Sequence record: SRR31156797_2095
DNA: 20,000 bases
Direction: 5' to 3' (one strand)
In this document: one piece after another, positions 3,001-20,000 of the stretch
How positions within the stretch are numbered: the first letter of the stretch is position 1
How the letters are laid out: the number at the start of each line of letters is the position of its first letter
The notes under the pieces: model-generated
What the model was told of the DNA's origin: nothing
The model's input: the letters and a program-made list of their open reading frames with translations, nothing else
The model's database searches: none
Program-made: the position numbers and the translations under genes

Positions 3001-6000
3001 TAACAGAGGCAGCTTTGATGTTTTTGACATTTCAGGTGCTCCGGCTTCTGCGACACTTTTAAACACCCATAGCCTCGGCACATCATCTGCACTGCTATAC
3101 AGTGTTATTGAGCGTAACGGTTATGTATACGGTGCTCAGAACTATACAGGGCTTACAGTTTCGCACATTGATACCGGATTTATGGGCGGAATAAACAGCA
3201 GCAACGCATACGGCTTAGCCATTTTTGAAGACAGATACCTTCTGGTTACTGGCTACGAATACGGCGGCGGGATGAACATTTACGATCTGGACACCAGCCC
3301 GACCGACCCTATGCTGGTCGGCAGTATAAACCTCGGACTTGATGGTGATGATATTATAAAAGTCAGCGTGAGTGACAATTTCGCATATGTTTACGATCCA
3401 TACTTTATACACGTAATTGATATCAGCGACGTAAAATTACCTCGCATAATTGCAGCGATACCGACCACAGCAAACAGTGTTGACATCAATGAGGACACTG
3501 TATTCATATCACACTCAGGAGGAGGCGTAACAACTCTCCCTAAAGCCTCGGTATCACTCCCATATAAAACATTTTCAATGGAGTTTCTCGCAACTGCACA
3601 GGATGAGCTTTCACTTGCAACAATACTCGGCTCTAATCCATCTTCAACAGCAATAGATTTAGACCTAAACCTTCCGGACAGTCTCACAAGCGGAGCCTAT
3701 GTGAGCTGGATTCTTGATGATAACGGCTATATCCTCTCAAACGGAACACTCGACCCTCCGACCTATCAGGACGGCGACACAACCGTATACATATACGCTA
3801 ATGTATCATACGGAAATGAGTCATACATATTAGGCTACGAACTTACTGTGCTCTCACTCCCTCCTACAGATGACGATCTTGCTGAAGAGGCGTTAAGTAT
3901 GCTTACGATTGAGGACATACTCGCAGGAAACTCCGACGGAGATAACATCCTTACAGACATGAACCTCCCTACTTCAATAAGCGATGGTATTTCCTTATCG
4001 TGGGATGTAGGAAATGCTCTCTCTATTAATAGCTCAGGTGTTGTAACCAGACCAGCTTTCGGCGTAGGGAACGAACCGGTGACTCTCTCAGCTTCTGCAT
4101 GGTATGGCGGCTCTGACGTACACAACAGAACTTTTGACATAACCATCCTCGCTGAAGATGCTGTTAATATTAACGTAGACGTTGGTTATGGAGGATACAT
4201 AGGGGACTACTCCATGTATGCAGGTGAATACTATCTTTATTACTACGACAAAGTAAACGAGACGATGTCCGTAGACGCAAGTAGTTCAACCCCGAACTAC
4301 AGTGGTCCAGATGTTGATGCTGGTGGTGACTTTACATTTATCGCTAACCAGAACAACTCTGTTAGCTCTGGCGATATCTTTATCTTAAGCGTATTTGGAG
4401 GAACACTGCAAGACGTTGACTACAACGGAGAGATAGATGATCCGGTAACTGATAACTTCGGAGCTTTACACGCTATACTCCCTGGTGATGCTATTGGTAC
4501 TGACGGCAATACTGTCGGCGTAAACATAATAACCGACATCATCTTCCATAACGTCGAATATATGATCGAAGCTGGTATGACCTCAACTGAGATTATGGCG
4601 GCAGCAAACGCATATGCGCAAAAGCTTATAACCTCTGACATTAACTCTGACTATGTAATAGACTATAAAGATGCTCTGGCTATCAACGCTTACAGCGACT
4701 ATGGCATTACAAATATAATTGACGGAAGCTCAACGAATAAGACAAGCCTAAGCACTGATTATATTCAGGCATACATTAATAAGCTAGCAAATCATATAAT
4801 TATACCTACTGACTATACGGCACCATTTAATAATGTGCAGTTCTCAATAGGAAACTCAAGTGATGTAAATGAGTTTATAAGTGTAAAAAACGGCTACATA
4901 TCTCTTATCTCTGATGAGGCAAAGGTTTCCTCATACGAAATCAACGATGGGTTACACTCTCAATATGTAATTAATGACGTCATCCATGACTCATCACCTG
5001 CTATGATTACTGATGTTGCTGACATAGTAGTAACAGACTCTTACGCAGCTTTGGCGAAGCAGAGCGAGCCGTTCATACATATATTAGAAACCTTCACAGA
5101 TTCAACAACACCGATAGGTAATAACTCAATATTTGAGCTAGGAAGTGATTTCATATCAGAAAAGCTTCTTGCTGATGAAACAAACAACATACCTTATGAA
5201 ATTTATACCGATACCGGATCTCTCTATCTGAATGCATATAATATGGCTGACCCTTCATCACCTACTGATATGATAGCTGATTTATTAGTGGCAGCAGCGA
5301 GCACACTTAAAGACGCTGTAATCGACAGCAGTGGAGACTATATATATGTAGTCGTTGATGAAGGCTATATTTATCCGGTGGACATAAGCGCTGTAAGGGC
5401 GGCGGGTTCACCTTCTACACTCACATCCAAAAAGAGCTCATACGCTGGTTCATCAGTCTATGATGCTGATATCAAAGACAGCACACATCTCTATGTTGCA
5501 ACTGATTCCGGAGTTGAGGTTTTTGATCTTTCGACACTGCCATCAGCGGCAGCTACGGGTAGTATAGCTATCAGCTCAGCCTCAGATATCCGTAATCTGG
5601 AAGTTGCCAGCGGTTACTTGTACGCATTTAACTACGACCTATATGCGCCGCAGAAATACTGCATAGATACTCCTCTCTCACCGAGCCTCGAAAAATCTAT
5701 GACAGACAGAAAGCTAACTAGCTCTGTGGTTGACATGGAATACGGATATGATGGAATCCTCTATGTAGCGAGTTCAACAGAACTGGTTGCTTATAACCCT
5801 GACATCACTCAAACCAGCTATTACGGTGAAACATTTTCTAACGGAAAATATGTAAGAGACGTCGCTGTGGATGGAGCAAAAGCTTATGTAGCTGTTAATG
5901 ATACAGCGCTGAATGTGTACGACATTACGGATATAAAGAACATCTCAGTCGCTTCCGGCGGAACACCGGACACACCGGATAGCGGAACGTATGACGGTTA

Positions 6001-6787
6001 TCTGGTAGATGTTTACGGCAGCCACGCAGTTGTTATGACTGCTGATTCACTGCTTAGATACACTACATCTAACCTTGCAGACAGCGTGAAAGTAAGCCCT
6101 GCTGACACAACAGTTTACACTGACATGTATATCGACAGCACAGGCGACATCTACGCATCAGGTGCCCAGATGACAATGCCGGTAGACGTTGTTTTGATTG
6201 AGCCAATTATAGATATAGCATCTGTAGCAACTATGGATTCTACTGTAGACAGGATCATACCTGGTGCATCAACCGTTACTATGGAAGCTCTGATAAAGGC
6301 GACTAACTTCGTGTTCTACTCTGATAAAACAGATACTTCTATCAACTATGTAGGAAATCTTCCTGCTGGTGATATGACAGGAGTCGCTACAGATCCAACG
6401 GGTATTGGTGACCTTGGTATGATTAATGATACAATATTACTACTGGATTCTAATAACTCAAATCTCGAGTTGTATTCGTACAATAGCTCAACAGGGGACG
6501 CAACCCAAATAACCTCCCTGTCAGTCTCTGATGATGTGAAAAAGGTGTATGCTGATGAAAGCAACAGCTACATTTACATCACTCATTCTGCTGGTGTTTC
6601 AGTTGTTTACTGGGATGGCGGATCGACACTTGAGTATTCTGCCTTCCTCCCTTCGGCGGGCAATACGATGAACGTAGATGCTGATAATGACTATCTGTAT
6701 ATAGCTAGCGGGCTTGGCGGGCTGCACGTTGTTCCTCTGATAAAAGGTGACTACGTGATACCTGATAACGGACGCGACCCAAGTTAA
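2..6787 (+). CDS. Giant secreted/surface-type protein, 5'-partial: 3 atrophied bacterial Ig-like domains, 2 LVIVD-repeat beta-propeller regions and 2 copies of an unnamed domain with Ca-binding-like loops
   Basis: The frame of the 200..6787 ORF is open back to position 2 (INGTWYIDGNERK...VVTGDGLPSDGVRM), so the real start lies upstream of the window. The Ig-like motif 'D(L/M)xLP......xSW......I.S.G..' occurs at ~820-1060, ~3620-3855 and ~3914-4153. LVIVD-type repeats (YLYLADRGEGFISVDISDPASP, FAYVYDPYFIHVIDISDVKLP, YLYIASGLGGLHVV) occur at ~1750-3540 and ~4860-6740. Composition is acidic and S/T/D/Y-rich. Confidence 0.85.
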   Translation: MNGTWYIDGNERKFKRRAIVSSIKKINESDEISYKTGLQLYAEDSSSQGIELIVVTGDGLPSDGVRMVKNDYGYLKIYSDDSSSGMYYWMNSTERAAMVSAMQSNGYAEYAFTAYTAKTTNYEPSGSALQTIKQKIYPTVLPLTNTESDIDPHFLSVSGMQSHNISSLSSGGTLNLAYTAGTNNILYGDIKFECEDVSGGYHDTSDDLPIGTTAISVALPTANYSLLQECYAYIYYFDYAFTKMITSWKFITSTSEMSDEALLISTVSNVDINNLLGGNSGYSTVTTDLYLPVSLGSNISLSWSSSNTSAISNSGTVSRPSASSGAIDVTLTATATLNQENYSQDFTFTVLPEDEIYNSARVYAGAIADGIVEIYKTSDMSSPVITTNTSSDSDDVSLIGLFQYPTSSIIPEELYIVMVYGGTAFDANYQGSDPDRGMEQNPDGQTPVVTLNKGNVYAVLSGEDLINGNFSVNVLTDIVYRKISYMISAGMPYQKIVDKIDEYANMLLDGNDIEIDGQINNGDILLFNPYTDIDSTAFSSLSQFSSYMNEIYSNSMNSSYKYLSMMNFSEVHSMTAYDTAHSFIENDIIYVSEYDYGIKILDVSDLASPSYLGGIMEAGDYVVKSVKHGDYLYLADRGEGFISVDISDPASPAKADTFTGDSYSSISDIAIHSNGNYAYVAYSASSSVRIINISDPTNLVDVGTYNTPIAIGELYMDTTNDLLYAADTSGYAGAVIINVSSPESLSLHNGENIFYQDEYNTIYDIAAKDDGTNRAVYIAGQNSIEIFDATNLNTVAFEMNLGNAIAVSLKIDNDMLYVGTNQSEVTVFDISDALSPQKLYELTPDITGTNNISLSDGIIHFNTAYGVQIIEDSGNFASRLGAYTDMGYAFSSIKGTDSRVYGAGYKNNSNYIVVMDSSNPEDITSLSSQAYGDSNTIQSLAYDETYFSDTVFATTWGKTLLFGIKDTETVDPPTLYAPGSGIARLDPIEIVGDENKMIVGNRGSFDVFDISGAPASATLLNTHSLGTSSALLYSVIERNGYVYGAQNYTGLTVSHIDTGFMGGINSSNAYGLAIFEDRYLLVTGYEYGGGMNIYDLDTSPTDPMLVGSINLGLDGDDIIKVSVSDNFAYVYDPYFIHVIDISDVKLPRIIAAIPTTANSVDINEDTVFISHSGGGVTTLPKASVSLPYKTFSMEFLATAQDELSLATILGSNPSSTAIDLDLNLPDSLTSGAYVSWILDDNGYILSNGTLDPPTYQDGDTTVYIYANVSYGNESYILGYELTVLSLPPTDDDLAEEALSMLTIEDILAGNSDGDNILTDMNLPTSISDGISLSWDVGNALSINSSGVVTRPAFGVGNEPVTLSASAWYGGSDVHNRTFDITILAEDAVNINVDVGYGGYIGDYSMYAGEYYLYYYDKVNETMSVDASSSTPNYSGPDVDAGGDFTFIANQNNSVSSGDIFILSVFGGTLQDVDYNGEIDDPVTDNFGALHAILPGDAIGTDGNTVGVNIITDIIFHNVEYMIEAGMTSTEIMAAANAYAQKLITSDINSDYVIDYKDALAINAYSDYGITNIIDGSSTNKTSLSTDYIQAYINKLANHIIIPTDYTAPFNNVQFSIGNSSDVNEFISVKNGYISLISDEAKVSSYEINDGLHSQYVINDVIHDSSPAMITDVADIVVTDSYAALAKQSEPFIHILETFTDSTTPIGNNSIFELGSDFISEKLLADETNNIPYEIYTDTGSLYLNAYNMADPSSPTDMIADLLVAAASTLKDAVIDSSGDYIYVVVDEGYIYPVDISAVRAAGSPSTLTSKKSSYAGSSVYDADIKDSTHLYVATDSGVEVFDLSTLPSAAATGSIAISSASDIRNLEVASGYLYAFNYDLYAPQKYCIDTPLSPSLEKSMTDRKLTSSVVDMEYGYDGILYVASSTELVAYNPDITQTSYYGETFSNGKYVRDVAVDGAKAYVAVNDTALNVYDITDIKNISVASGGTPDTPDSGTYDGYLVDVYGSHAVVMTADSLLRYTTSNLADSVKVSPADTTVYTDMYIDSTGDIYASGAQMTMPVDVVLIEPIIDIASVATMDSTVDRIIPGASTVTMEALIKATNFVFYSDKTDTSINYVGNLPAGDMTGVATDPTGIGDLGMINDTILLLDSNNSNLELYSYNSSTGDATQITSLSVSDDVKKVYADESNSYIYITHSAGVSVVYWDGGSTLEYSAFLPSAGNTMNVDADNDYLYIASGLGGLHVVPLIKGDYVIPDNGRDPS

Positions 6788-6810: not shown

Positions 6811-6839
6811 AAAAAAAGGGGAACCAAACGGTTCCCCTT
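6811..6839 (-). terminator. Intrinsic terminator between convergent genes (U-tract on minus strand; possibly bidirectional)
   Basis: AAGGGGAACC-AAAC-GGTTCCCCTT is a perfect 10-bp stem (6816-6839), preceded on the + strand by A7 (6811-6817). Confidence 0.85.
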
Positions 6840-7825: not shown

Positions 7826-7905
7826 AGGTTTGCAGCGCAAACCGCAAAACTAGGTCGCACAACATGCGATCACAGTATTGTAATAAGCCACCAGTGCTAG
7901 CCGGT
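7826..7905 (+). repeat. Dispersed multi-hairpin element, copy A
   Basis: AGGTTTGC-AGC-GCAAACC ... GGTCGCA-CAACA-TGCGATC ACAGTATTGTAAT AAGCC ACCAGT-GCTA-GCCGGT; aligns along its length with the copies at 14.7-14.9 kb and 19.8-20 kb. Confidence 0.75.
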
Positions 7906-8408
7906 TATTTGTACTTTTTGCGGCGAAAGAGATCAGTACGCTTAGAAATCACTCTATCTATAAAGAGCGTACCCTCAAGGTGGTCGGTTTCGTGCTGAAT
8001 AAGTACAGCCTCAAATTCCTCCGCCTCGATAACTCTCTCTTCGAAATTCTCGTCTTTAAATTTGATAAGTATCTTGCGTGCACGGTTAACATTACCTGTA
8101 AAATCAGGCACAGACATACATCCTTCACGAAACTGAAGCATACCTTCCCACTTCATAATCTCAGGGTTGATCATTATCAGCCTGCCGTGATGGTTTTCAC
8201 ACTTTTTATTCTTAGAAGCATCAGCCACAACAATCCGCAGGTTTTCACCTATCTGTGTGGCAGCAATTCCGGTTGAGTGACCGGAAGCCTCCATAGTATC
8301 AAGCAGATCCTGAATGACCTGCTTCGCTTTATCGTCAAGTTCCTCGACATCATCCGCCATCTCTTTCAGGCGTGGGTCAGGATATTTAAGTACTTCTCTA
8401 ACTGCCAT
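7905..8408 (-). CDS. def: Peptide deformylase
   Basis: 167 aa with all three PDF motifs: TGIAATQIG, EGCMS and QHETDHLEG. Confidence 0.95.
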   Translation of the reverse strand: MAVREVLKYPDPRLKEMADDVEELDDKAKQVIQDLLDTMEASGHSTGIAATQIGENLRIVVADASKNKKCENHHGRLIMINPEIMKWEGMLQFREGCMSVPDFTGNVNRARKILIKFKDENFEERVIEAEEFEAVLIQHETDHLEGTLFIDRVISKRTDLFRRKKYK

Positions 8409-8951
8409 TTAAAACTCGTATGTCTCTATATGTCTGATATTTACGTCGGTGCCAAGCTCACGGGAAATCTTTTTAAGATCGTCTTCCCAACCGCTAACAT
8501 CAGCATCGTCCTCGATGATTACTTCAAGCACCATGATATATATAGGGCTTTCATCTGAGCCTGCAACCTTTGTCTGCAGATCCATAATATTTATCTTTCT
8601 TTCTGACAGATAGTCAGCGATCTTATTAACTATTCCCGGTTTGTCAGAGCCATAAACAGAGATAACATAGTGCTCTCCCTCAGGCTTTGCTACAGGTTCG
8701 CTGATACTCTGGACATAAACTTCTATGTCCATCTCAGACTCCAAACCGCCAAAAAGTTTTTTAATATCAGCCGCACTGCGCCCCTCAGGACAATTCACGA
8801 TAAAAATCGCAGAGAAAAAGCCCTGAAGCATAGTGGAGCTCGAATCCTCTATATTAAAATTATTCTCAAAAAACACCCTGGAAACGCCGGCAACAATGCC
8901 CGGTCTGTCTGACGCAATAAGCGTGACAGCGAAAAGATTTTCTGTGTTCAT
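8409..8951 (-). CDS. Tandem ACT-domain protein (GcvR-like / amino-acid-binding)
   Basis: Two ACT repeats (ASDRPGIVAGVSRVF...NIEDSS; GSDKPGIVNKIADYL...NIMDLQ). The ATG at 8951 follows a GAGGTG Shine-Dalgarno and is preferred over the ORF-track start at 8963. The stop directly abuts the def start (TAAATG). Confidence 0.85.
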   Translation of the reverse strand: MNTENLFAVTLIASDRPGIVAGVSRVFFENNFNIEDSSSTMLQGFFSAIFIVNCPEGRSAADIKKLFGGLESEMDIEVYVQSISEPVAKPEGEHYVISVYGSDKPGIVNKIADYLSERKINIMDLQTKVAGSDESPIYIMVLEVIIEDDADVSGWEDDLKKISRELGTDVNIRHIETYEF

Positions 8952-9082
8952 ATTACACCTCAATTACAAGATACTTCTTTTAGTATAGTCAGCTGAAAGG
9001 GCTTTGGCAAGATACAAGCTTCTGTTCATAACAATTACGAGCAGTTTAATCCGAATAAAGGTATTTCTAACCAAGATAACAC

Positions 9083-9112
9083 TTGAAAAAGACACGGTGT
9101 CAGCAATATAAT
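9083..9112 (+). promoter_or_regulatory. Putative sigma70 promoter of clpC
   Basis: TTGAAA (9083-9088), 18-nt spacer, TATAAT (9107-9112); GAGG SD before the ATG at 9134. The spacer contains the palindrome GACAC-G-GTGTC. Confidence 0.55.
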
Positions 9113-9133
9113 ATAGGATGAGAGGAATATAAC

Positions 9134-11542
9134 ATGTTTGAACTTTTTACAGATAGAGCCAGAAGAGTAATACTTTTTGCAAGAGAAGCTTCAGAGCGGC
9201 TTATGCAAACTTCTATAGATACAGAGCACATCCTGCTCGGGCTTCTACGGGAGCGTTCGGGGCTAGCCGCAGAGATTTTCAGCCGCAGAGGGATAGACGT
9301 GACCATGCTTATGAACGATGTCAAAGCGGTCAGCGAAAAGGGAACAAACCTTATGATAAAAGGGAGCCTCCCTTTCAGCCCAAACGGGAAAAGCGTTCTC
9401 GACTATTCCGTAGAGGAAGCTAAAGTTCTTAAAAATAAGTATGTAAATACTGAGCACATCCTGCTCGGACTACTCAGAGAGAAGAAAGGTAAATCATCAA
9501 TGCTCCTTTCAAAGCTCGGTTTCGACCTTGTTACACTGAGGGAAGAGATACAGAAACTTTCAAAAACATATTCGAAGAACACTGAACAGGCAGCGACACC
9601 TACCCTCGACGAATTCGGTCAGGATCTCACTAAAAAAGCGAGAGACGGAAAGCTCGACCCTGTTATCGGACGCAGTACAGAAATTACCCGCCTCATACAG
9701 ATTCTCGGAAGGCGTATAAAGAACAACGCTGTCATCATCGGCGAGCCAGGAGTTGGTAAAACAGCAATAGTAGAAGGACTTGCGCTCAAAATGGCATCCG
9801 ATGATGTTCCTGATTTCCTCAGAGACAAAAGACTCTTCTCACTTGAACTAGGCAATGTAGTAGCCGGAACAAAATACCGTGGTCAGTTCGAAGAGCGGAT
9901 GAAGAACCTTATAAAAGAGATAGAGACTGACGGAAACGTCATTGTTTTCATAGACGAGATTCACACCATTGTCGGCGCTGGTGCTGCGGAGGGGTCTATT
10001 GACGCTTCTAACATGCTTAAGCCTGCACTCGCCAGAGGTGTTTTCCAGTGTATCGGTGCTACAACCCTCAGCGAATTCCGTAAGAATTTCGAAAAGGACG
10101 GCGCACTTAACAGGAGATTCCAAACCATCCCTGTCGATCAGCCGGATGCGGACGAGACTGTACTTATCCTAGACGGCATCAAGCGTTTCTATGAGGATTT
10201 CCATAAGGTGCTCATACCTCACGATGTTCTCGAAGAGATAGCAAGGCTCACAGACAGATATATAACCGATAAATTCCAGCCGGACAAGAGTATCGACGTC
10301 TTAGACGAGGCTTGCTCAAGGCTGAAACTCGCAACACGCACTATGCCGGACGACATGGTTCGTATAAAAGATAAGCTCAATCATCTCAAAGAAGTGCGTG
10401 ACGAAAAGCTGCGTGCCAACGACTATGACAACATCCAGAAATATTCTAAGGATGTTGAGCGCTGGGCTAACAAGCTCTCCGTTACTCAGAAAGAGTGGGA
10501 AGAGGAACTTGACCTTAACTGGCCTAACCTCACCATAGACAATATCTCTGAGGTTGTGGCGCACATGACAGGCATCCCTCTCCAGAAACTTAAAACTGAC
10601 GATATGGCTAGAATATCTAATGTTGATAGCGATATAAAAGAATTCATCATCGGACAGGATGAAGCTGTTGACGCTCTCGCCAGATCTATAAAGAGAAGCT
10701 TTGCAGGGCTTTCAAACCCAGCAAGACCGCTCGGTTCCTTCATATTTATGGGACCTACTGGTGTTGGTAAAACCGAAGTTGCTAAAAAACTTGCTGAGAT
10801 AGTATTCGGTTCCGAATCATCACTCATACGCATCGATATGACAGAATATATGGAGAGATTCAACTCTTCACGCCTTATAGGTGCTCCTCCGGGATACGTT
10901 GGCTATGAGGAAGGCGGAAAGCTCACTGAGCAGGTTCGCAGAAAACCTTACTCTGTTGTTCTTTTTGACGAGATCGAAAAAGCGCATCCGGAAGTGCTTA
11001 ACGTACTCCTCCAGATACTCGATGACGGTCATATAAATGACAGCCTCGGGCATAAAGTAAACTTTAAAAATACCATTATAATAATGACTTCTAACCTCGG
11101 AACAAAGCTGAGCCTAAATCAAAAGACAATGGGCTTTGATACTGGGGAGGATGAAGGTGACCTCATAGACTACGACACTTTCAGCTTTAACGCTCACAAA
11201 GAGCTTAAAGATAAGTTCCCTCCTGAATTTATTAACAGAGTAGACAACCTAGTTGTGTTCAAACCACTTGGTAAACCGGAGCTGAAATCTATCATCGACC
11301 TCCAGATTGACGAAATCAATGAGAGGCTAGAGATTGCCGGAAAGCACATTGAGATAGAGGAAGAGGTTAAAGATTACCTCGTAAGCGGCGAATACGACTA
11401 CAACTACGGTGCGAGACCTATCAAGAGGCTCCTGCAGGCGAAGGTTGAAGACCCGCTCAGCGAACTGATGCTCTCTGGTAAATTCGCTAAACGCAAAAAC
11501 CTTAAGGTGAAACTGGTAAAAGATGAAATCGTATTCAGATAA
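9134..11542 (+). CDS. clpC: ATP-dependent Clp protease ATP-binding subunit ClpC
   Basis: 802 aa; double Clp-N repeat ([11 protein letters not shown] x2), Walker A GEPGVGKT and GPTGVGKT, pore loops KYRG and GYVG, a short coiled-coil middle domain, and the ClpP-docking MGF loop. Confidence 0.92.
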
Positions 11543-12836
11543 ACGCATACTGATAGCTGGCGCTGGCGCCATAGGAAGTTTTTACGGCGGTTTCATGGCT
11601 AAGGCTGGATATGACGTTGAACTTCTCGCACGTGGCAAACACCTTACGGCTATGCAGAAAAGCGGTAAACTTACCATCAAAAGCTGGAAACATGGAAATC
11701 ACGAAATAGATGTAAATGCTGTGACTGAACCTACAGGTCAGTATGATATAATATTTTTCTGTGTAAAATCTCAAAACAGTATGGAGATGATCGGGCAGAT
11801 TAAGGACTCCCTTAAGCCTGACGGATGTGTTGTCTCATTTCAAAATGGGGTGGAAAACCCTGATATATTAGCTAAATTCTTCGGTAAAGAGCGCACTGTC
11901 GCCGCAAGCTTATTCATAGGTTTATCCATCGAGCCTGCCGGCACAGTTAATCACTCTGCAACAGGTGACTGCCACTTCGGCGGATGGAGCGAAGAATCTA
12001 AAAAGTTCGAGCCTATGCTTCTGGAAATCCTTAACAGCAGTGATATAAAGGCGAGTATCACTCCGGACGTGCACCATACAATATGGTATAAGCTCGTGTG
12101 GAATGTCGCTTATAACCCGCTTTCAGCACTCCTTAATAGTACCTGCGGTCCTATGATACACTCGGAAACCATCAACCCTCTGATAGAGAACATGGTTCGC
12201 GAAGTTGTAGCCGCCGCTAAAATGCACGGTGTCACCATAACCGAGGAGCAGTGGAGGGCTAAAATCGCACCACAGCCGTCCTTAGAAAAGTATAAGACAA
12301 GCATGCTGCAGGACATTGAAAACAACCGTAACCCCGAAATAGACGGGATTCTGGGACCTGTTGTCCGCACACATGAAGCGAACGGCGAGAAAGCTCCCTA
12401 CTGCGAAACAGTTTTCCGCTCACTTGAATTTAAATTCGGTTCACATTTCATACATTGCCCAAGGCTCACAGTTGATATGGTCGTCAGAAATGGCGACAAA
12501 ATATTACTCATCGAGAGGAAATATGAGCCATACGGATGGGCACTCCCCGGCGGATTTGTAGATTACGGTGAAACAGTAGAACATGCGTCACGCAGAGAGC
12601 TTATGGAAGAGACGGGAATAAGGGCTGACGAAATCACTATGCTAGGCGTGTATTCTGACCCTGAGCGTGATAAGAGAGGTCACACTGTATCAGTAGTTTA
12701 CCATACAAAAACTTCACAAAATCCTAAAGCTGGCGATGATGCCAAGAATGCTGTTTTCTACGATATAGCTAATCTACCATATGATATTGTTTTCGATCAC
12801 AAAAAAATTATTAACGACTACTTACTAAATTCATAA
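11523..12836 (+). CDS. panE: 2-dehydropantoate 2-reductase (PanE/ApbA family) fused to a C-terminal Nudix hydrolase
   Basis: N-terminal part has GAGAIG, FCVKS, FQNG, WYKLVWN, TSMLQDI and EIDGILG (ketopantoate reductase motifs). The C-terminal ~125 aa has a complete Nudix box GFVDYGETVEHASRRELMEETGI plus RDKRGHTVS and AGDDA. One uninterrupted frame, overlapping the clpC end by 20 nt. Confidence 0.85.
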   Translation: MKSYSDKRILIAGAGAIGSFYGGFMAKAGYDVELLARGKHLTAMQKSGKLTIKSWKHGNHEIDVNAVTEPTGQYDIIFFCVKSQNSMEMIGQIKDSLKPDGCVVSFQNGVENPDILAKFFGKERTVAASLFIGLSIEPAGTVNHSATGDCHFGGWSEESKKFEPMLLEILNSSDIKASITPDVHHTIWYKLVWNVAYNPLSALLNSTCGPMIHSETINPLIENMVREVVAAAKMHGVTITEEQWRAKIAPQPSLEKYKTSMLQDIENNRNPEIDGILGPVVRTHEANGEKAPYCETVFRSLEFKFGSHFIHCPRLTVDMVVRNGDKILLIERKYEPYGWALPGGFVDYGETVEHASRRELMEETGIRADEITMLGVYSDPERDKRGHTVSVVYHTKTSQNPKAGDDAKNAVFYDIANLPYDIVFDHKKIINDYLLNS

Positions 12837-12914
12837 ATACTAACAATAACTTTTCACATATTGGACTCTTGATTTTTCACTATTTTTTACGATATTATTA
12901 ACACGAGGGCTTTA

Positions 12915-13364
12915 ATGCAGAATAGGCAAGAAAACCGTAGAGAATACATGCGTGTGAAATCCACCCTCCATTTTTGTATCAGAGTTATAGAGAGTATCGA
13001 CGAAGAGACAGGCAGATACATCTATGGAAAGTGCTTTTGCACTAAGACTACTGATATTTCAATTGGTGGAATATGTACATCTCATAACGGGGACATCAAT
13101 GTCGGATTTGGGCTCGAAATATCTACACCGGAAAAAATGACAAAAGCAGAATGCCTAACGTGTGACAAAGCGTACTTACGAAACAACCCGCTTCCCCTCA
13201 CACCCATTTTCGGCTCTGTTGTGTGGATGACCAACGATAGATGTGGAATTAAATTTAATAATCTCAGCGTTAGAAATGAGAACATCCTCTCAAAGTATAT
13301 TTGGGAGGCACACCTTGACGGTGTCAGGAGCACAAAGGAGCAGAAAGCAAAACGAAAGTTCTAA
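12915..13364 (+). CDS. Stand-alone PilZ-domain (c-di-GMP-binding) protein, Cys-rich
   Basis: RxxxR (RREYMR) and DxSxGG (DISIGG) motifs, C-terminal VVW...CGIKF strand; GAGG SD upstream. Confidence 0.8.
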   Translation: MQNRQENRREYMRVKSTLHFCIRVIESIDEETGRYIYGKCFCTKTTDISIGGICTSHNGDINVGFGLEISTPEKMTKAECLTCDKAYLRNNPLPLTPIFGSVVWMTNDRCGIKFNNLSVRNENILSKYIWEAHLDGVRSTKEQKAKRKF

Positions 13365-13371
13365 TTACTCT

Positions 13372-13401
13372 TTGACTAGCGGGTGAACCTAAAGATATAC
13401 T
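13372..13401 (+). promoter_or_regulatory. Putative sigma70 promoter (likely leaderless transcript)
   Basis: TTGACT (13372-13377), 18 nt, TATACT (13396-13401); the GTG start is at 13408 and has no clear SD. Confidence 0.5.
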
Positions 13402-13407
13402 GGTATT

Positions 13408-13950
13408 GTGAATAAAGTATATCTTCTCTCTATTTTAATTCTGACCTTCATAATCTCAGGCTGCGCTATGACCGAACCTGAATACAGTATAGGTGCGGGC
13501 AGAAACGCCTATATTGAAAAAGATATGCTCGGAACCTACACAGGTGCGGGTCTCGTTAAAGGAGCCAGGGGTAATGTCCTTAAAACCTTCGAAGCTGAGA
13601 TGCTCGGCTACGAAGAGCAGGGTGTCATATACCTGCGGGAGACTTACCTATATAGCGACGGCAAAAAAACTGTCTCAACTTATCGTATAACACCAACCAG
13701 CAGCCCTTATAAATACTCCTGTGTACGCATCGAAGACCTTAACTCATGCTCTGTAAAACGTGCGGGCGGTACCATATCGCTTAAGATAAACTCTGTCGAT
13801 GCTAAGATGACAAGTGTCGATCTTGAGATGTTAAGTCAGGCTTTTCACTTCCTTAACGGTGATAAAATGATTAAACACACCTACTATAATAAACTTCTTT
13901 TCCTTCATGATATTGATGAAATTGTGCACTACACAAGAGTTTCACAATAA
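13408..13950 (+). CDS. Lipoprotein, DUF3833-like
   Basis: Signal peptide II with lipobox ISG-C; the pattern G.V.K.F...M.G......L.E...YSDG resembles DUF3833 (recalled from memory, not searched). Confidence 0.6.
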   Translation: MNKVYLLSILILTFIISGCAMTEPEYSIGAGRNAYIEKDMLGTYTGAGLVKGARGNVLKTFEAEMLGYEEQGVIYLRETYLYSDGKKTVSTYRITPTSSPYKYSCVRIEDLNSCSVKRAGGTISLKINSVDAKMTSVDLEMLSQAFHFLNGDKMIKHTYYNKLLFLHDIDEIVHYTRVSQ

Positions 13951-13986
13951 AACCACACTAATCGGACTTTTTTTATCTTTTTCATC

Positions 13987-14015
13987 TTGACTATTTTTAT
14001 TATCTAATATATTCT
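13987..14015 (+). promoter_or_regulatory. Putative sigma70 promoter of ahpC
   Basis: TTGACT (13987-13992), 17 nt, TATTCT (14010-14015); GGAGGA SD before the ATG at 14048. An inverted repeat TCTAA-N8-TTAGA straddles the -10. Confidence 0.55.
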
Positions 14016-14047
14016 TTAGAAAATAAAACATTACGGAGGATTCATAA

Positions 14048-14644
14048 ATGAGCCTAGTAACAAAAGCTGCACCAAAATTCGCAGCAGAAGCAGTAGTAAA
14101 CAAAGAGTTTAAGCAAGTTAGTCTTGAAGATTATAAAGGTAAGTGGGTTGTACTTTTCTTCTACCCGCTCGACTTCACATTTGTATGCCCGACAGAGATC
14201 ACAGCTCTCTCAGATGCATACGGTGAGTTCCAGAAGCGCGAATGCGAAGTTATCGGTGTTTCTACCGACTCTAAATTCAGCCACCTCGCTTGGATTAACA
14301 CTCCACGTACAGAAGGCGGTCTCGGCGCTATTAACTACCCACTCGTAGCAGACTTTACTAAATCAATCTCTGCTGACTACGGCGTTCTTCTCGAGCCTGG
14401 TATGGCTCTCCGAGGAACATTTATCATCGACCCTGAAGGTAATGTTCAGTTTGAACTTATCCACGATCTTGGTATCGGACGTAACGTTAACGAGATCCTC
14501 AGAAACCTTGACGCTCTTCAGTTCGTAAGAAAGCACGGCGAAGTTTGCCCTGCTGGCTGGACTCCAGGTAAAGAGACTATGGTTGCTGACCCTGAGAAGA
14601 TGAAAGATTACTATAAGAACAACCCGGAAGGCTGGGAGAAGTAA
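14048..14644 (+). CDS. ahpC: Typical 2-Cys peroxiredoxin (AhpC/Prx1)
   Basis: [13 protein letters not shown] peroxidatic motif, GGLG, GRN and the EVCPAGW resolving Cys. Confidence 0.95.
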
Positions 14645-14711
14645 ATCGAATTGTTCAACACTTAGTTGTTGTAACTATATAGACACCACACACCACACCA
14701 CACAACGAAAT

Positions 14712-14743
14712 AAAGGGAGTTTCCGAAAGGGGCTCCCTTTTTT
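14712..14743 (+). terminator. Intrinsic terminator of ahpC
   Basis: AAAGGGAGTTTCC-GAAA-GGGGCTCCCTTT stem with a GNRA loop, running into a T6 tract. Confidence 0.9.
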
Positions 14744-14745
14744 CA

Positions 14746-14824
14746 TATGGTAGCACCACAGGCGAATCACAATACTGTGACCGTTATATCAAAGACCATG
14801 TCTTACGGCTCCCGCTGGTCGCTT
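14746..14824 (-). repeat. Dispersed multi-hairpin element, copy B (inverted)
   Basis: The reverse complement reads AAGCGACC-AGC-GGGAGCCGTAAGACATGGTC...GGTCACAGTATTGTGATTCGCCTGTGG-TGCTA-CCATA and aligns with copies A, C, D and E. Confidence 0.8.
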
Positions 14825-14842
14825 ACAGCAGTCACGCCCAGT

Positions 14843-14926
14843 ATCAGCGAACCAAAGGTAAGCGTAAAATAAGGCAGATAAGAATATATTCACAGTTTTG
14901 TGCTATGCCTCAAAGTGCTAACTTTG
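14843..14926 (+). repeat. Dispersed multi-hairpin element, copy C
   Basis: ATCAGCGAACC-AAA-GGTAAGCGTAAAATAAGG...TTCACAGTTTTGTGCTATGCCTCAAAGT-GCTA-ACTTTG. Confidence 0.8.
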
Positions 14927-14974
14927 CTATGCGTCAAAGTGCTAACTTTGCTGTGCCTCAAAGTGCTAACTTTG
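14901..14974 (+). repeat. 3 x 24-bp tandem repeat of the terminal hairpin of copy C
   Basis: TGCTATGCCTCAAAGTGCTAACTT at 14901, 14925 (one C>G) and 14949 (one A>G); ends flush with the stop codon at 14975. Confidence 0.95.
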
Positions 14975-15826
14975 TTAGATGAGCATAAGAGTGCTGAAAG
15001 ATATCAGAAGAAATATGCCGGCGTACTCTACAGCGCCGTAAACCTTTTCGTATCGACCGCTCATAGATAGAACAGACTTAAAAAAGTAAGTCGCTACTGC
15101 TACACCGGAAATAGTAAGCGCCATCCCCAGAGCCATAAAAAGTACAGCCATAAAGCCGGCGAAAGGCATCTCGTTGGAGAATGCGAACATAGTAAGAACC
15201 ATCGCACCGGGGCAAGGAACAAGACTAATCAGAAGTGCACTGGACAAGAATCCTCTATCGTGATTGTGAGAATGTTTATGTTTTCTCACTTTTTTGTAAA
15301 GCATTAACAGACCGATAAAAAGTATAGTCGCATACGATATATTAGAGAGGATCACTGATGCTGAGTCGAACCCGCCTGTCACTGAGCCTTTTATGATGTA
15401 ATAGATAACCGCCACAGAACCAAATGCAACAAATGCGTGACCAAAAGCGACCAATAGACCAAACAGGGCAGACTTTACCAATGCAGTCTGGCTGGAAAGA
15501 ACATAGCCTGAGACAAGTGTCTTAGCATGCCCAGGTCCTAGTGAATGAAAGGCGCCATAGGCGAAACTTAAAAACAGAAACATCAGATAGCTCACAGACA
15601 GCGGCTTGTCTTTAATCTTGTCAAATTCAGAAGTGATCTTACCTCTGATGAGCTTCTGCTTCTCAACCAGATAAACGTAAAAATCATTCTGTTTAACAAC
15701 CTCAGCCTTTGTCACCTCTGTAGGCTTCCCCCCTGAAAAGGGGTTATTCGGTTTTCCGCTTGTAAAAGGATTAGCTAAAGCAGTTGAAAACATTAATAAA
15801 ATTAAAAATACAATGAAAAGTCTCAT
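14975..15826 (-). CDS. RcnA/NicO-family nickel/cobalt (or zinc, ZevB-like) transporter
   Basis: HSLGPGHAKT motif, His-rich loop KHKHSHNHD, LVPCPGA motif, multiple hydrophobic helices and an N-terminal signal-like segment. Confidence 0.85.
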   Translation of the reverse strand: MRLFIVFLILLMFSTALANPFTSGKPNNPFSGGKPTEVTKAEVVKQNDFYVYLVEKQKLIRGKITSEFDKIKDKPLSVSYLMFLFLSFAYGAFHSLGPGHAKTLVSGYVLSSQTALVKSALFGLLVAFGHAFVAFGSVAVIYYIIKGSVTGGFDSASVILSNISYATILFIGLLMLYKKVRKHKHSHNHDRGFLSSALLISLVPCPGAMVLTMFAFSNEMPFAGFMAVLFMALGMALTISGVAVATYFFKSVLSMSGRYEKVYGAVEYAGIFLLISFSTLMLI

Positions 15827-16317
15827 TTCAGCTCCATATATTGCCTTCCGCCCAGATCGTCTACAATCTTCGCACCGACAGCCTTACTTATTGTTATATC
15901 AGAATAAAGCGTATCGTCATAATGATATATCTGCACATCTTTCCTGCACTTTTTGATTGGGATTTCCAGAGTGAATTTATAACTCACAAACCTCTTATCA
16001 GACAGAACCTCAAAGTTATCCACAGCCCGGACATCCATAAGCTCGTTACCGCAATAAGCTTTTAAGAAGTAATCGAATCCGCTAAGATTATCAAACATCC
16101 CGCTTTTAACTTTTTTCACTTCCATACCAATAAACTGCCTGTCGCCGTCTATGTCGAAATCAGCGTAAAAGATATTGCTGAACATCTCATCGAACTTCCA
16201 GCTGAGGTAAAGCTTATCCCCTCTGATCAAAACCTTAGAATCTATCCACACATGCGGATGTGCAAAAGATAGGCTGCTGATAAGAAATACCAGCAGCAGT
16301 AATATCATTTTCTTCAA
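15823..16317 (-). CDS. DUF1007-family periplasmic protein (ZevA-like metal-binding)
   Basis: Signal peptide ending SFA followed by HPHVWID; W.FDEMFS and DIDGD motifs; 4-nt ATGA overlap with the transporter gene. Confidence 0.8.
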   Translation of the reverse strand: MKKMILLLLVFLISSLSFAHPHVWIDSKVLIRGDKLYLSWKFDEMFSNIFYADFDIDGDRQFIGMEVKKVKSGMFDNLSGFDYFLKAYCGNELMDVRAVDNFEVLSDKRFVSYKFTLEIPIKKCRKDVQIYHYDDTLYSDITISKAVGAKIVDDLGGRQYMELK

Positions 16318-16354
16318 TTAGTCACCATATTTACACTCTTGAAGTGAGTCTTTA

Positions 16355-16900
16355 TCATTTAACTATCTTAGATATCTCTTTGAATTCAGGAGTACCCGCT
16401 TTGCCTAGCATCATAAAGAGAACGGCTTCTGCGCAAGTGATAACAGCTCCTGCTTTCTCCATCATTCCGATGGCGATCTCCCAGTTGAAATCTGACCTGC
16501 TGCAAACCGCATCAGCGGCTACGTGAACATTATAACCATCTTCAAGTAGGTCAAGAACAGTCTGAAGGACACAAACGTGAGACTCCATACCTGCTATAAC
16601 AACATTCTTTATACCCTTATCCTTAAGAGCCTGTTTGAATGATTCCTCGCCGCAGCAAGAGAAAGTAACCTTCTCAACATGCCCCTCTATTTCGCTGGCA
16701 AGCTCGCCAACGGTAGCACCGAGCCCTTTAGTGTACTGCTGAGTAGCAATAACTGGTACATCGAGCACGTTAGCACCTTTTACAAGCTTTGAAGTGTTTG
16801 CGAGCATATCAGCGTAAATGTCCTGATCCATAGCTACCACAAGCCTCTCCTGCACATCTATAACAACAACAGCAGTGTTCTCTTTCCCGATCTTAAACAT
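16355..16900 (-). CDS. Isochorismatase-family cysteine hydrolase (YcaC-like)
   Basis: Catalytic triad motifs IDVQE (D), EKVTFSC (K) and GMESHVCVLQT (C); GAGGTG SD. Confidence 0.9.
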   Translation of the reverse strand: MFKIGKENTAVVVIDVQERLVVAMDQDIYADMLANTSKLVKGANVLDVPVIATQQYTKGLGATVGELASEIEGHVEKVTFSCCGEESFKQALKDKGIKNVVIAGMESHVCVLQTVLDLLEDGYNVHVAADAVCSRSDFNWEIAIGMMEKAGAVITCAEAVLFMMLGKAGTPEFKEISKIVK

Positions 16901-16909
16901 ATGTCACCT

Positions 16910-17509
16910 CTATAGTTTTAATAACTCTTCGATCTTTTTAATATCATTTTCCCAGTCGATAAAGTGGTAAACCTGCATCCCTGCATCAGTGGCTCTTTCG
17001 ATATGCCCTGCGTTATCATCAACAAACAGCACATCAGAAGGCTCCTCGCCAAAATCAGCGCAAACCTCACCGAAAACCTCAGGATGCTTCTTCCCTTTGC
17101 CAAGATGATATGAATTATACACCTTTTCGAACTTAGGAAAAAATTTATGCTCTTCGTTGAAAACGTCAAGCCAGTTTGTCTGGTCGCTTAAAATACCTAA
17201 TCTATACCCTGCCCTGCCTATCTCTTCGATAAGTTCCAGCACAGGTTTTCTAATTACAAATCTATCAAAAATCTGCTGACGCATTTCATCAACAGTCATT
17301 TTAAAATCATATCTTTCAGAGAGTCCAGCCCAGAATTGCTCTTCTGTCGCTTTCCCATACATATATCCGGTGTTCCAGAGCACATCACAAGCATCATCGA
17401 AGAATTTCACAGGGGCTACTTTGTGATAGTTTGCAATATCGTTTAACCCTTTTTCCCACCCCTCTTCTGCTATAACTCCGCCGAAATCAAAAAACACAGC
17501 TTTAATCAT
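16910..17509 (-). CDS. HAD-family phosphatase (YihX-like, DxGG motif)
   Basis: FFDFGGVI motif I, LSD motif II, KKHPEVF motif III and FVDDN motif IV. The ATG at 17509 follows GGAGGAG and is preferred over 17521. Confidence 0.85.
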   Translation of the reverse strand: MIKAVFFDFGGVIAEEGWEKGLNDIANYHKVAPVKFFDDACDVLWNTGYMYGKATEEQFWAGLSERYDFKMTVDEMRQQIFDRFVIRKPVLELIEEIGRAGYRLGILSDQTNWLDVFNEEHKFFPKFEKVYNSYHLGKGKKHPEVFGEVCADFGEEPSDVLFVDDNAGHIERATDAGMQVYHFIDWENDIKKIEELLKL

Positions 17510-17564
17510 CAGCTCCTCCATGGTGTAAAGATACAGTATAAAATGTAAAGTTCAAAGAATGAAG

Positions 17565-17593
17565 TTGAAAAAGAGACGAGTGTGTCCTATTGT
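17565..17593 (+). promoter_or_regulatory. Putative sigma70 promoter of mnmA (likely leaderless transcript)
   Basis: TTGAAA (17565-17570), 17 nt, TATTGT (17588-17593); the ATG at 17600 has no SD. Confidence 0.45.
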
Positions 17594-17599
17594 GCCTGT

Positions 17600-18634
17600 A
17601 TGAAAGAAAAAGTTTTAATTGCTATGAGCGGCGGGGTGGACAGCACTCTTGTTGCACATATGATGAAAGAGAAAGGGTACGACGTTATCGGCTGTACTAT
17701 CAAGTTTTTCGAAGGTCAGGACCAAGCTGTCGCAGATGGCGAAAAAGCAGCAAAAGAATTAGGTATCAACTGGTACTCTGCTGACTACAGCGAATATTTC
17801 AGCGAAGATGTCATATCATATTTTATACGCACATATATTCAAGGGAGAACCCCTAACCCTTGCGCACACTGTAACAGGCACGCAAAGTTCAACTATCTCT
17901 TTCGTGAGATGAAAGCGAACGGAGCCACAAAAATAGCCACCGGTCACTATGCAGACAAGGTTCAGATTGGTGAAAAATATTTTATTAAAAAAGGCGCAGA
18001 CATTCGAAAAGACCAGTCATATTATATGTGCCTGCTTAAAGATTATCAGCGTGAAGTGCTGGAACTGCCTCTCGGAAATGTAGAAAAAACCGTGATAAAA
18101 GCGAAAGCAGCGGAGCTTGGGCTTTCTGTTGCTGATAAAGAGGAGAGTCAGGATATATGCTTCCTTCAGGGGGGCGACTATAGAGAATTCCTCGAATCAA
18201 AAATTGGCAAAGATAAAATAAAAAAAGGCTGGTTTATAAAAGACGGGGAGCGCTTTAAGGAACACGAGGGTATAATATACTACACTGTTGGTCAGAGAAA
18301 AGGTTTGGGTATAGGTTACCATGAACCACTATTTGTTAAAAGCATAGACGCTGACAGCGGAGATATAGTAGTATGTGACAAGAGCGAAGTTACCGGACGT
18401 GGTGTTAAGGTAAATGACCTTGTCTTTCCAGAGGAACACGACAGGATTTTCCGTGCAGAGGTTAAAGTAAGATACCGCATGGCTCCTGTCCCATGTATGG
18501 TAGAGATTAAACCTGACAACAAAGCTACTATCCTGTTCGACGAGCCGGAGTTCGCTCCGACACCGGGTCAGATAGTTTGTGTCTATGAAAATAATGTGGT
18601 GGTTTGCGGTGGATATATTCAAGAAGTATTTTAG
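17600..18634 (+). CDS. mnmA: tRNA-specific 2-thiouridylase MnmA (CxxC type)
   Basis: AMSGGVDS PP-loop, TPNPCAHCN, ATGHY, KDQSY, ESQDICF, YTVGQRKGLG and PGQ. The start at MKEKVLIA (17600) fits the family better than the GTG at 17582. Confidence 0.95.
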   Translation: MKEKVLIAMSGGVDSTLVAHMMKEKGYDVIGCTIKFFEGQDQAVADGEKAAKELGINWYSADYSEYFSEDVISYFIRTYIQGRTPNPCAHCNRHAKFNYLFREMKANGATKIATGHYADKVQIGEKYFIKKGADIRKDQSYYMCLLKDYQREVLELPLGNVEKTVIKAKAAELGLSVADKEESQDICFLQGGDYREFLESKIGKDKIKKGWFIKDGERFKEHEGIIYYTVGQRKGLGIGYHEPLFVKSIDADSGDIVVCDKSEVTGRGVKVNDLVFPEEHDRIFRAEVKVRYRMAPVPCMVEIKPDNKATILFDEPEFAPTPGQIVCVYENNVVVCGGYIQEVF

Positions 18635-19289
18635 TCAATTTACTAATGCAGTGGTCACCCTCAGCGGTGGTGCTGATTCTGCTTGTGTTTTAATGATGGC
18701 GGTGCAGTATCTGGGCAGAGAGAATGTCCTGGCTGCTACTTGTGTGAACAGTCACTTTTTCAGAAGTGAGGTCGAGACAGCTAAGGAAGTTGCACTAAAA
18801 CTCGATGTCCCTCATATGCAATATTCTGTAACTATGCCTAAAGAATTTTACGGCGGCGGCTGGAACAAATGCTACTACTGTAAAAAGACTATTATGTCCG
18901 CTGTGGTTGAAAGTGAAGGCTTTTCAGTTGTTTTCGACGGTACAAATTTTGACGATGACCTCGAAGAGAGACGTGGCAGCGTGGCTATAAAAGAGCTGGG
19001 CATAAGATCACCTCTTCACGACCTTGGTCTCGGTAAAACATTTGTACACAACGCTGTAAAAGACCTCGGAATAGCATTTCGTGACGAATCCTGCAAAGCT
19101 ACAAGGCTTGAAGGGAAAGTTGACGACTTTCGTATGAATCAGGTTGAAGCTTTCGAATCGCAGCTCAGAGACACACTTCCAGGCATAAGATACCGGATAG
19201 ATAACGGTCGTATTGAGTTCAAGCGACCTCTTAAGTTAAGTAGCGACCAGTTCGAGCTTGTTAACGAACTAAAAGGCTGCTTCGTCTAG
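18609..19289 (+). CDS. larE: LarE-like PP-loop ATP-dependent sulfur transferase
   Basis: LSGGADS PP-loop, CYYCKK, DGTNFDD...R.G..A..ELGIRSPL and SCKATR (cf. LarE SCLASR). Probable GTG start at 18609 after GTGGTGG, overlapping the end of mnmA. Confidence 0.7.
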   Translation: MDIFKKYFSQFTNAVVTLSGGADSACVLMMAVQYLGRENVLAATCVNSHFFRSEVETAKEVALKLDVPHMQYSVTMPKEFYGGGWNKCYYCKKTIMSAVVESEGFSVVFDGTNFDDDLEERRGSVAIKELGIRSPLHDLGLGKTFVHNAVKDLGIAFRDESCKATRLEGKVDDFRMNQVEAFESQLRDTLPGIRYRIDNGRIEFKRPLKLSSDQFELVNELKGCFV

Positions 19290-19684
19290 TCTGCGAGAGG
19301 ATCCTCACCCTCCTGCCATGAAGCGAGATAACGCTCATGCAGATGGAAATCCTCACCTTTATGCTCTGTGAAAGTTACATAAATATTCTGATGTGGAATG
19401 CTCCATATATCATGAATAACCCCCATAAAGCCGAGTGCCAGCGAGCGCCTTTTAACTATCTCACGCCCTTCACGTATATCAGCGTTCACAAGGGCAACAC
19501 CCTCTTTATTATCCTCCACCCTTCCGATGAAAAGATTATAGGTATCGTGTTCTCTTATTGAGATGCTGATGTGGTCTGTACCTGTGTCCATCACTTCAGA
19601 AAAGAGGTTTTTGATCTGCTCTGAAAAGGCGAGTTTCTCCTCGTCACGAGCTTTAAGGTTTATATCGAATTGAAGGTGTGGCAT
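19286..19684 (-). CDS. Tautomerase/MIF superfamily protein (Pro1)
   Basis: M-P-H-L-Q-F start with catalytic Pro1; two beta-alpha-beta units, DIREGR and NIYVTFTE. Its stop shares CTAG (19286-19289) with the convergent larE-like stop. Confidence 0.8.
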   Translation of the reverse strand: MPHLQFDINLKARDEEKLAFSEQIKNLFSEVMDTGTDHISISIREHDTYNLFIGRVEDNKEGVALVNADIREGREIVKRRSLALGFMGVIHDIWSIPHQNIYVTFTEHKGEDFHLHERYLASWQEGEDPLAD

Positions 19685-19757
19685 AACTTCCCCCGATTAG
19701 TTTATACTGATAAGTATAATACGAAATGGTTTCAGTTCAATACTATATAAGTAGGAG

Positions 19758-19790
19758 AAAAAAAAGCTGGGCAGCGTAAACCACCCAGCT
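19758..19790 (-). terminator. Intrinsic terminator for a minus-strand transcript arriving from the right
   Basis: The minus strand reads AGCTGGGTGGT-TTAC-GCTGCCCAGCT and runs into a T8 tract; the G-U pairs work only on the minus strand. Confidence 0.8.
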
Positions 19791-19808
19791 AGTATTTAGT
19801 TATATTTT

Positions 19809-19891
19809 AGGCGAGTGCAACTAGCCGTATAGACTTGGTACACTATCCCGTGTTCACAGTTTTGAGATATGCCTCAAGGTGCTAAGCTTAC
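19809..19891 (+). repeat. Dispersed multi-hairpin element, copy D
   Basis: Near-identical to copy E (4 substitutions and 1 indel over 83-84 nt); repeat period 108 nt. Confidence 0.92.
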
Positions 19892-19913
19892 CTCGCAATG
19901 ACTACTAAGCTAA

Positions 19914-20000
19914 ATCAGGCGAGTGCAACTAGCCGTATAGACTTTGGTACACTATCCCGTGTTCACAGTATTGTGATATGCCTCAAGGTGCTAACCTTGC
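19914..20000 (+). repeat. Dispersed multi-hairpin element, copy E (reaches the window end)
   Basis: ATCAGGCGAGT-GCA-ACTAGCC GTATAGACTT TGGTACAC-TATCCC-GTGT TCACA-GTAT-TGTGA TATGCCT CAAGGT-GCTA-ACCTTG. Confidence 0.92.

Follow-up and report, generated by a model that had tools for sequence, protein, structure and literature searches.

The 20,000-nucleotide (nt) stretch SRR31156797_2095, called the window throughout, is ordinary chromosomal DNA with a G+C content of 43%, and it carries a short dispersed repeat: a hairpin with a varying stem and a fixed GCTA loop, accompanied by a fixed flanking motif and found strictly between genes. Judged from its named MnmA and Def homologues, the host is a member of the Deferribacterota near Denitrovibrio; in a named-homologue comparison MnmA is 83% identical to that of D. 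acetiphilus and 92% identical to that on another contig, and Def is 98% identical to the same source as the latter. The one sequencing run with the window in it, probably its source, comprises 1.5 million contigs (915 Mb), apparently from a community sample, with the host organism at a depth of ~18. The genes assigned by Pfam encode a probable giant surface protein, a 2-hydroxyacid dehydrogenase, peptide deformylase (def), an ACT-domain protein, a Clp ATPase, a PanE-NUDIX fusion, a PilZ protein, a DUF3833 protein, AhpC, a NicO-like permease with DUF1007, an isochorismatase, a HAD hydrolase, MnmA, a PP-loop protein and a tautomerase-like protein. Intergenic DNA makes up 1,315 bases (6.6%) of the window.

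The part shared by the copies of the repeat is a core of ~37 nt, TCACAGTWTTG-N6-GCC-N4/5-GTGCTA followed by a 6-nt right arm. An earlier sequence-only reading of this DNA had proposed five copies (A to E) built from four hairpins (H1 to H4), of which H4 is the one with the GCTA loop, and all five copies were recovered at their places and on their strands: the pattern TCACAGTWTTG-N13/14-GTGCTA has exactly five matches in the window (7870, 14780 on the minus strand, 14890, 19854 and 19963), compared with no match in any of 200 dinucleotide shuffles. Searching the window with a profile of the five cores returned the same copies at E values of 7e-12 to 1.6e-8, followed by two partial 24-nt modules at 14925-14974 (E 5.5e-4 and 3.1e-3) and then by a match at E 2.2. 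Aligning the copies reveals invariant blocks TCACAGT, TTG, GCC and GTGCTA within the ~37 nt, with a core spacing that varies by 1 nt among copies and with no conservation upstream of the core except between D and E. The copies and their extensions are as follows.

7870 to 7905, plus strand: core of copy A, with N4 spacing; profile E value 6.1e-9; 5/6 pairs in H4; the right arm shares 1 nt with the def stop codon, namely its last base.
14745 to 14780, minus strand: core of copy B, with N4 spacing; profile E value 1.6e-8; 5/5 pairs in H4 with a 5-nt loop; 5 nt from the ahpC terminator and in an inverted doublet with copy C.
14890 to 14926, plus strand: core of copy C, an 11-nt conserved head and the first 24-nt hairpin module; profile E value 2.6e-10; 6/6 pairs in H4.
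14925 to 14974, plus strand: two extra tandem 24-nt modules after copy C (GCC/GCG - CAAAGT-GCTA-ACTTTG); partial profile matches, both pairing 6/6.
19854 to 19890, plus strand: core of copy D, with a degenerate right arm; 4/6 pairs in H4; profile E value 1.3e-10.
19963 to 19999, plus strand: core of copy E; 6/6 pairs in H4; profile E value 7.1e-12; 3' flank cut by the window end.
19809 to 20000, plus strand: 108-109-nt tandem duplication carrying copies D and E with their flanks; 28 nt are 100% and 55 nt are 95% identical.

The figure of five copies in 20 kb therefore holds for the cores themselves but not for independent loci: copies D and E lie in one 109-nt tandem duplication, which leaves four independent loci in the window and means that the H1 and H2 common to D and E are not independent evidence. 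Several arrangements are represented, namely a single copy (A), an inverted doublet (B/C), a tandemly amplified 24-nt module (C) and copies within a local duplication (D/E). The C array, in which the core is followed by two further 24-nt hairpin modules, had gone unmentioned before; Tandem Repeats Finder reports it at 14901-14974 with a period of 24, 3.1 copies and 94% matches. The inverted pair B/C, whose members are 106 nt apart, folds as one long hairpin (z of -3.57; none of 200 shuffles as stable), as is expected of any two inverted copies. Around the cores of the window copies, neither terminal inverted repeats nor target duplications are visible.

For H4, pairing was counted over six positions on each side of the GCTA loop and compared with 20,000 random positions. 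Pairing is complete (6/6) in E and in all three modules of C, reaches 5/6 in A and 4/6 in D, and in B amounts to 5/5 only when the loop is taken as the five nucleotides TGCTA; at random positions, 5/6 or better occurs in 3.0% of cases and 6/6 in 0.26%. One fully compensated pair (A-T to G-C) distinguishes the stem of C from that of E, and in A and B unrelated stem sequences surround the same loop. Pairing is thus kept while the stem sequence changes, which makes H4 a conserved hairpin of varying stem and fixed GCTA loop, and the claim of a fixed apex on covarying stems stands. The sequence conservation claimed for H3 (TCACA-N4-TGTGA) stands in part, the left arm being invariant and the right arm imperfect in A, C and D: the pairing is perfect in B and E, with one mismatch in each of the other three copies. 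With an invariant left arm and a variable right arm, H3 resembles a signal in the sequence more than it does a stem. These two blocks could also be read in duplex DNA, as dyads (TCACA-N4-TGTGA and CAARGT-N4-ACYTTG) of a site for a nucleoid-associated protein or a global regulator. Such a site would agree with two dyad-symmetric blocks of 14-16 bp at fixed spacing, with the invariant TCACAGT, TTG, GCC and GTGCTA, and with the restriction of the sites to intergenic DNA, but it is distinctly unlikely: the halves of the H4 stem co-vary, which a protein reading base identities could not tolerate, the central GCTA is asymmetric, the spacing shifts by 1 nt, and the copies lie downstream of genes or between convergent genes rather than in promoter regions.

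The unit also occurs beyond the window. Contigs of the source run were compared with positions 14600-20000 at 80% likeness, and the aligner missed most cross-matches among the window copies themselves, so that the counts are a floor. The first matching contig (record 2; 18.9 kb, depth 18.8) matches 14883-14926 with 7 differences, and another (record 5; 9.1 kb, depth 18.7) matches 19962-19998 with 6 differences; in both, the match ends within 1-7 nt of the core boundaries and the flanks are unlike on both sides. Record 3 (53.9 kb, depth 19.5) matches 19858-19883 with 2 differences, a 26-nt match that by estimate could arise by chance in a 915-Mb run, and additionally has an unrelated 25-nt match at 16925-16949. 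The depths of the matching contigs (18.7-19.5) compare with 18 for the window organism, and the expectation of further copies beyond the window is thus borne out on same-depth contigs of the same organism. Because the other contigs match the core only, the core is the repeated unit. A fourth contig match (record 4, depth 12.7, at 18273-18315) lies inside mnmA and is not an element.

Searches further afield gave nothing comparable. A strict 20-base pattern had no genuine match in 185,579 species genomes or in metagenome contigs; one match in a Bacillota metagenome-assembled genome and one in the metagenome contigs are GC-rich, coding-looking and devoid of the hairpin, and were judged to be chance. 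Two patterns had 0 matches in viral contigs, the repeat had no match in plasmids, and in phages nothing appeared except a 26-nt match at E 0.8, which is not meaningful. A covariance-model search of Rfam with E values up to 1 gave three weak matches, none on the copies, in line with the earlier statement that the repeat could be matched to no known family, and ARAGORN found 0 tRNA or tmRNA genes in the window. Among the literature matches listed for Denitrovibrio, there was no report on such repeats.

The sequence-only reading had drawn the repeat as an 80-85-nt unit, a four-hairpin structured noncoding RNA or mobile unit with covarying stems. Taken as a whole this model is hardly credible, and it is largely refuted by the observations: conservation is limited to the ~37-nt core, and the copies on other contigs align over 37-44 nt only. 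The pairing and covariation claimed for H1 and H2 are not supported in four of the five copies, as only in A is the 45-nt segment ahead of the core more stably folded than random sequence; of 3,000 random windows, those of equal or greater stability make up a fraction of 0.008 for A, and B (0.25), C (0.80), D (0.36) and E (0.33) fold at null level. For whole-copy folds on the TGCTA strand, z is -2.46 in A and ranges from -0.62 to +0.03 in B-E; on the gene-sense strand it spans -0.06 to -1.88. Minimum-free-energy folds display no common four-hairpin layout. What speaks for the larger unit is copy A, with its two strong upstream hairpins, together with a 5-bp hairpin directly upstream of the core in record 5 (seen by eye, at a loose contig end); against it, besides the folding, stand the origin of D and E in one duplication and the core-only alignments. 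Nor do the data point to a discrete structured RNA, with no fold signal and no promoter or terminator framing the copies.

The two upstream hairpins of copy A, GGTTTGC/GCAAACC and GGTCGCA/TGCGATC, occupy 7826-7869 in the spacer between the def and dehydrogenase genes. The second is the H2 of copy A and is listed as a feature of its own.

7855 to 7869, minus strand: H2 of copy A, a terminator-like hairpin on the gene-sense strand, then TAGTTTTG.

This H2 is probably a local feature of the def-dehydrogenase spacer, outside the repeat. The hairpin and the following TAGTTTTG on the gene-sense strand suggest a possible attenuator between the two genes.

All four independent loci are intergenic and thus fall within 6.6% of the window, for which the chance is ~2e-5 by arithmetic. 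Copy A occupies the end of the 93-nt def-dehydrogenase spacer. The stop codons and terminators next to the copies are as follows.

7905 to 7907, minus strand: TAA stop codon of peptide deformylase, native by homologue comparison, abutted by copy A.
14712 to 14740, plus strand: intrinsic terminator of ahpC, adjoining copy B; weak chance match to the patAB leader in Rfam.
14975 to 14977, minus strand: TAA stop codon of the NicO-like permease, native by homologue comparison; the C array ends at the base before it.
19765 to 19790, minus strand: strong intrinsic terminator left of copy D, with 11 pairs and a T8 tail.

Judged by their homologues, the stop codons of def and of the NicO-like gene are both native: among the matches listed, 70/120 Def homologues are 167 amino acids (aa) long with 100% query cover, the same length as the window protein, and the C-terminus of the NicO-like protein has the same end residue in 5/7 aligned homologues and is one residue longer in 2/7. 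Since TAA is the commonest stop codon anyway (9/16 window genes), the notable point is the exact abutment rather than the choice of codon. The abutment to two native stops provides a testable hint, either of target-site choice or of a role at translation end. Orientation is also patterned. At the three judgeable loci (A, B and C), the copy comes after the 3' end of a gene and has its TGCTA strand antisense to that gene, and B is opposite in direction to A, C, D and E within 20 kb. The minus-strand terminator at 19765-19790 implies minus-strand transcription through E and D, the same orientation trend as in A-C.

On the gene-sense strand at 14890-14977 and 19854-20000, the C/D/E-type copies have stop codons in all three frames, supplied by a TAG (loop) and by two TGA triplets, one within CTTTGAGG or CCTTGAGG and the other within CTGTGA; A/B-type copies have them in one or two frames. 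The repeat further explains two unusually long spacers in the window (330 and 316 nt) and warns against annotating small RNAs there. Small reading frames across the copies look like translated repeats and not like genes.

The placement invites a reading at the RNA level, in which a 3' untranslated module, a UAGC-loop hairpin behind the stop codon followed by CAAWACUGUGA, could protect the 3' end of the mRNA, bind a protein or influence termination. The same strand of the element is gene-sense in 3/3 judgeable loci, although the chance of three agreeing orientations is only 0.125; D and E lie upstream of a minus-strand terminator, and the exact abutment of A and C to native stop codons, the three-frame stop codons of the C/D/E-type copies and the tandem hairpins of C, whose identical loops resemble a multi-site RNA, point the same way. 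Copy B does not, since it lies behind the ahpC terminator and would be mostly untranscribed, and the G-T pair of its stem is workable only on the TGCTA strand; the gene-sense fold z values given above are weak throughout. A 3' module of this kind is judged unlikely.

A role as promoter for small or antisense RNAs would draw on TTG and an extended -10 (TGCTAnnnT) on the TGCTA strand, or on TTAGCA-N17/18-WACTGT on the other strand. It is very improbable. TGnTAnnnT does fit 4/5 copies, and D followed by the strong minus-strand terminator resembles a small-RNA gene, with an RNA of ~95 nt ending at 19765-19790, but a sigma-70 scan places no site at any core and the genuine promoters of the window are canonical (for example TTGAAA-18-TATAAT at 9083). 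The TGCTA-strand spacer of 14-15 nt is too short, B would transcribe a terminator hairpin only, B and C would fire head-on on the other strand, and no Rfam small RNA was matched. In the promoter and terminator scan of the whole window, no element was predicted at any core, and the sole overlap was the H2 of copy A on the minus strand. Sigma-54, sigma-28 and sigma-32 promoters, as well as attC sites, parS/matS, a CRP-like site and DNA uptake sequences, were dropped on comparison of motifs by eye with consensus sequences.

Several neighbouring features of the window are recorded here in their own right. The reading frame at 2-6787 (plus strand) is open at the window 5' end and encodes more than 2,261 aa, with an LVIVD repeat and three atrophied bacterial Ig domains; its product is probably a giant surface protein. 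Between convergent genes lies a bidirectional terminator (6816-6839), a perfect 10-bp hairpin with T-runs on each strand, which accounts for weak chance matches to MicX in Rfam. A single 437-aa open reading frame (ORF) at 11523-12836 (plus strand) joins a ketopantoate reductase (ApbA and ApbA_C) to a C-terminal NUDIX domain, and its first 20 nt overlap the end of the gene for the Clp ATPase. Between the ahpC stop codon and the ahpC terminator, at 14683-14703, there is a short CACAC / ACACCAC run. The MnmA ORF at 17582-18634 (plus strand) is followed, in a different frame and with a 56-nt overlap, by the 236-aa PP-loop ORF at 18579-19289 (plus strand), which has weak NAD_synthase and QueC matches and whose true start may be further downstream.

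Combined, these observations are tentatively read as a lineage-restricted family of short REP-type extragenic repeats in a Denitrovibrio-like chromosome, perhaps spread by a Y1 transposase, an interpretation whose probability is put somewhat short of even. On the strand of the neighbouring gene, the unit consists of a 6-bp hairpin with the fixed loop TAGC, often right behind TAA, then GGC and then CAAWACTGTGA. According to PMC3337134, a REP is a palindrome flanked by conserved sequence on its 5' and 3' sides, and REPINs are inverted doublets ~71 bp apart that are mobilised by RAYTs. The window repeat matches this kind in its size, its extragenic placement, its palindrome with a fixed loop and asymmetric flanks, its arrangements, its freedom from inverted ends and duplications, and its occurrence in one lineage, and REP/RAYT or IS200/IS605-like logic, proposed from the outset, is still the best-fitting known category. 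By resemblance to the REP/REPIN kind, the unit would fold as single-stranded DNA, and a RAYT- or IS200/IS605-type Y1 (HUH) transposase would copy it, or would once have copied it, after recognising the hairpin, the loop and the flanking motif; copies would then survive where no gene is broken, particularly just 3' of TAA stop codons. Y1 transposases do occur in the phylum, as indicated by the IS200/IS605 tnpA and TnpB genes annotated at 549-2328, at the start of the Deferribacter desulfuricans megaplasmid pDF308.

The boundary of the unit bears on where it might insert. In 4/6 independent copies with a visible flank (A, C, and records 2 and 5), the right arm is followed at an offset of 0 or -1 by TTA, which is TAA on the opposite strand. 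A TAA that recurs at the 5' boundary on the gene-sense strand, with two of the six copies lacking it, would be in keeping with insertion 3' of a short word in the IS200/IS605 manner, and insertion 3' of TAA would explain both the stop-codon abutment and the gene-linked orientation. Taken further, the repeat could be a minimal single-hairpin mobile element whose transposase inserts 3' of a coding-strand TAA, thereby homing behind stop codons, with the hairpin then read by terminating ribosomes or decay enzymes. This extension is quite improbable, but homing to stop codons is the point of greatest interest; if it occurs, the repeat would represent a REP-like system in which target choice and orientation are coupled to gene ends. 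If the broader REP-like interpretation is correct, REP-type repeats would be extended to the Deferribacterota, and a very small unit, one fixed-loop hairpin with an 11-nt tail, would be available for probing the recognition needs of Y1 transposases.

A number of results weigh against the REP-like interpretation. No Y1_Tnp domain was found in any of the 16 main window ORFs (0/16), and the extra copies are few, at least two clear ones and one weak one on other contigs, the weak one being the possible chance match in record 3. The strict-pattern search of species genomes and metagenome contigs gave no comparative support. The target-site idea is weakened by B and D, in which TTA does not follow the right arm, and by record 5, whose TTA closes no long reading frame, with an in-frame TGA 4 codons upstream (30 letters, by eye). 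Replication-strand-biased single-strand transposition would not be expected to yield a gene-linked orientation, which suits a role in RNA equally well. The inverted doublet is present at 1/4 loci only, with a spacer (106 nt) that exceeds those of described REPINs. Furthermore, the REPs of enterobacteria and pseudomonads typically have a GTAG-type tetranucleotide head at the foot of the stem; the window repeat differs from the enterobacterial REPs in having no such head and an invariant loop instead. Read on the gene-sense strand, GTAG is confined to B (GGTAGCAC), where it is in the loop; C, D and E have GTTAGC and A has GCTAGC.

Compared with known systems, the closest likeness is to REPs and REPINs as characterized in PMC3337134, PMC3116915 and 10.1101/2022.05.22.493013: the window repeat is short (~35-40 nt), extragenic and an imperfect palindrome with conserved asymmetric flanks, it occurs as singles, inverted doublets and clusters without terminal inverted repeats or target duplications, and it is lineage-restricted. 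Unlike them, its orientation seems tied to the neighbouring gene. REP families number tens to hundreds of copies in a genome, and the RAYT (Y1_Tnp) gene that goes with them typically has the repeats on its flanks; the tally for the window repeat is at least five full and two partial copies in 20 kb, besides those on the other contigs. An indirect literature search turned up no REPIN report for the Deferribacterota, which is too little to say that none is in print. The miniature elements derived from IS200/IS605 (PATEs) offer a second parallel, with a hairpin and flanking single-strand motifs as possible recognition signals and no inverted ends or duplications, and the window repeat, as in Y1 transposition, may insert 3' of a short fixed word (TAA, 4/6 copies). 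Such IS200/IS605-derived elements go in just 3' of a fixed word of four or five nucleotides and leave no duplication; their two ends differ, each carrying a subterminal hairpin, and their length usually exceeds 100 nt, whereas the window repeat is a single 37-nt unit with one well-kept hairpin (H4) and an H3 that is imperfect in 3/5 copies. The BIME clusters of E. coli and the BOX elements of pneumococci are modular, with boxB or REP units repeated. The window repeat shares this modular build, including tandem amplification of one module (the 24-nt hairpin module three times in C), but has no sequence similarity to them and much shorter modules. Finally, Liang, Rudd and Deutscher are said to have reported in 2015 that E. 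coli REPs within ~15 nt of a stop codon influence translation termination; the window repeat differs in having a stem of only 6 bp, but resembles these stop-adjacent REPs in that, in 2/2 gene-adjacent copies, its hairpin begins 0-1 nt after the stop codon that ends the upstream gene.

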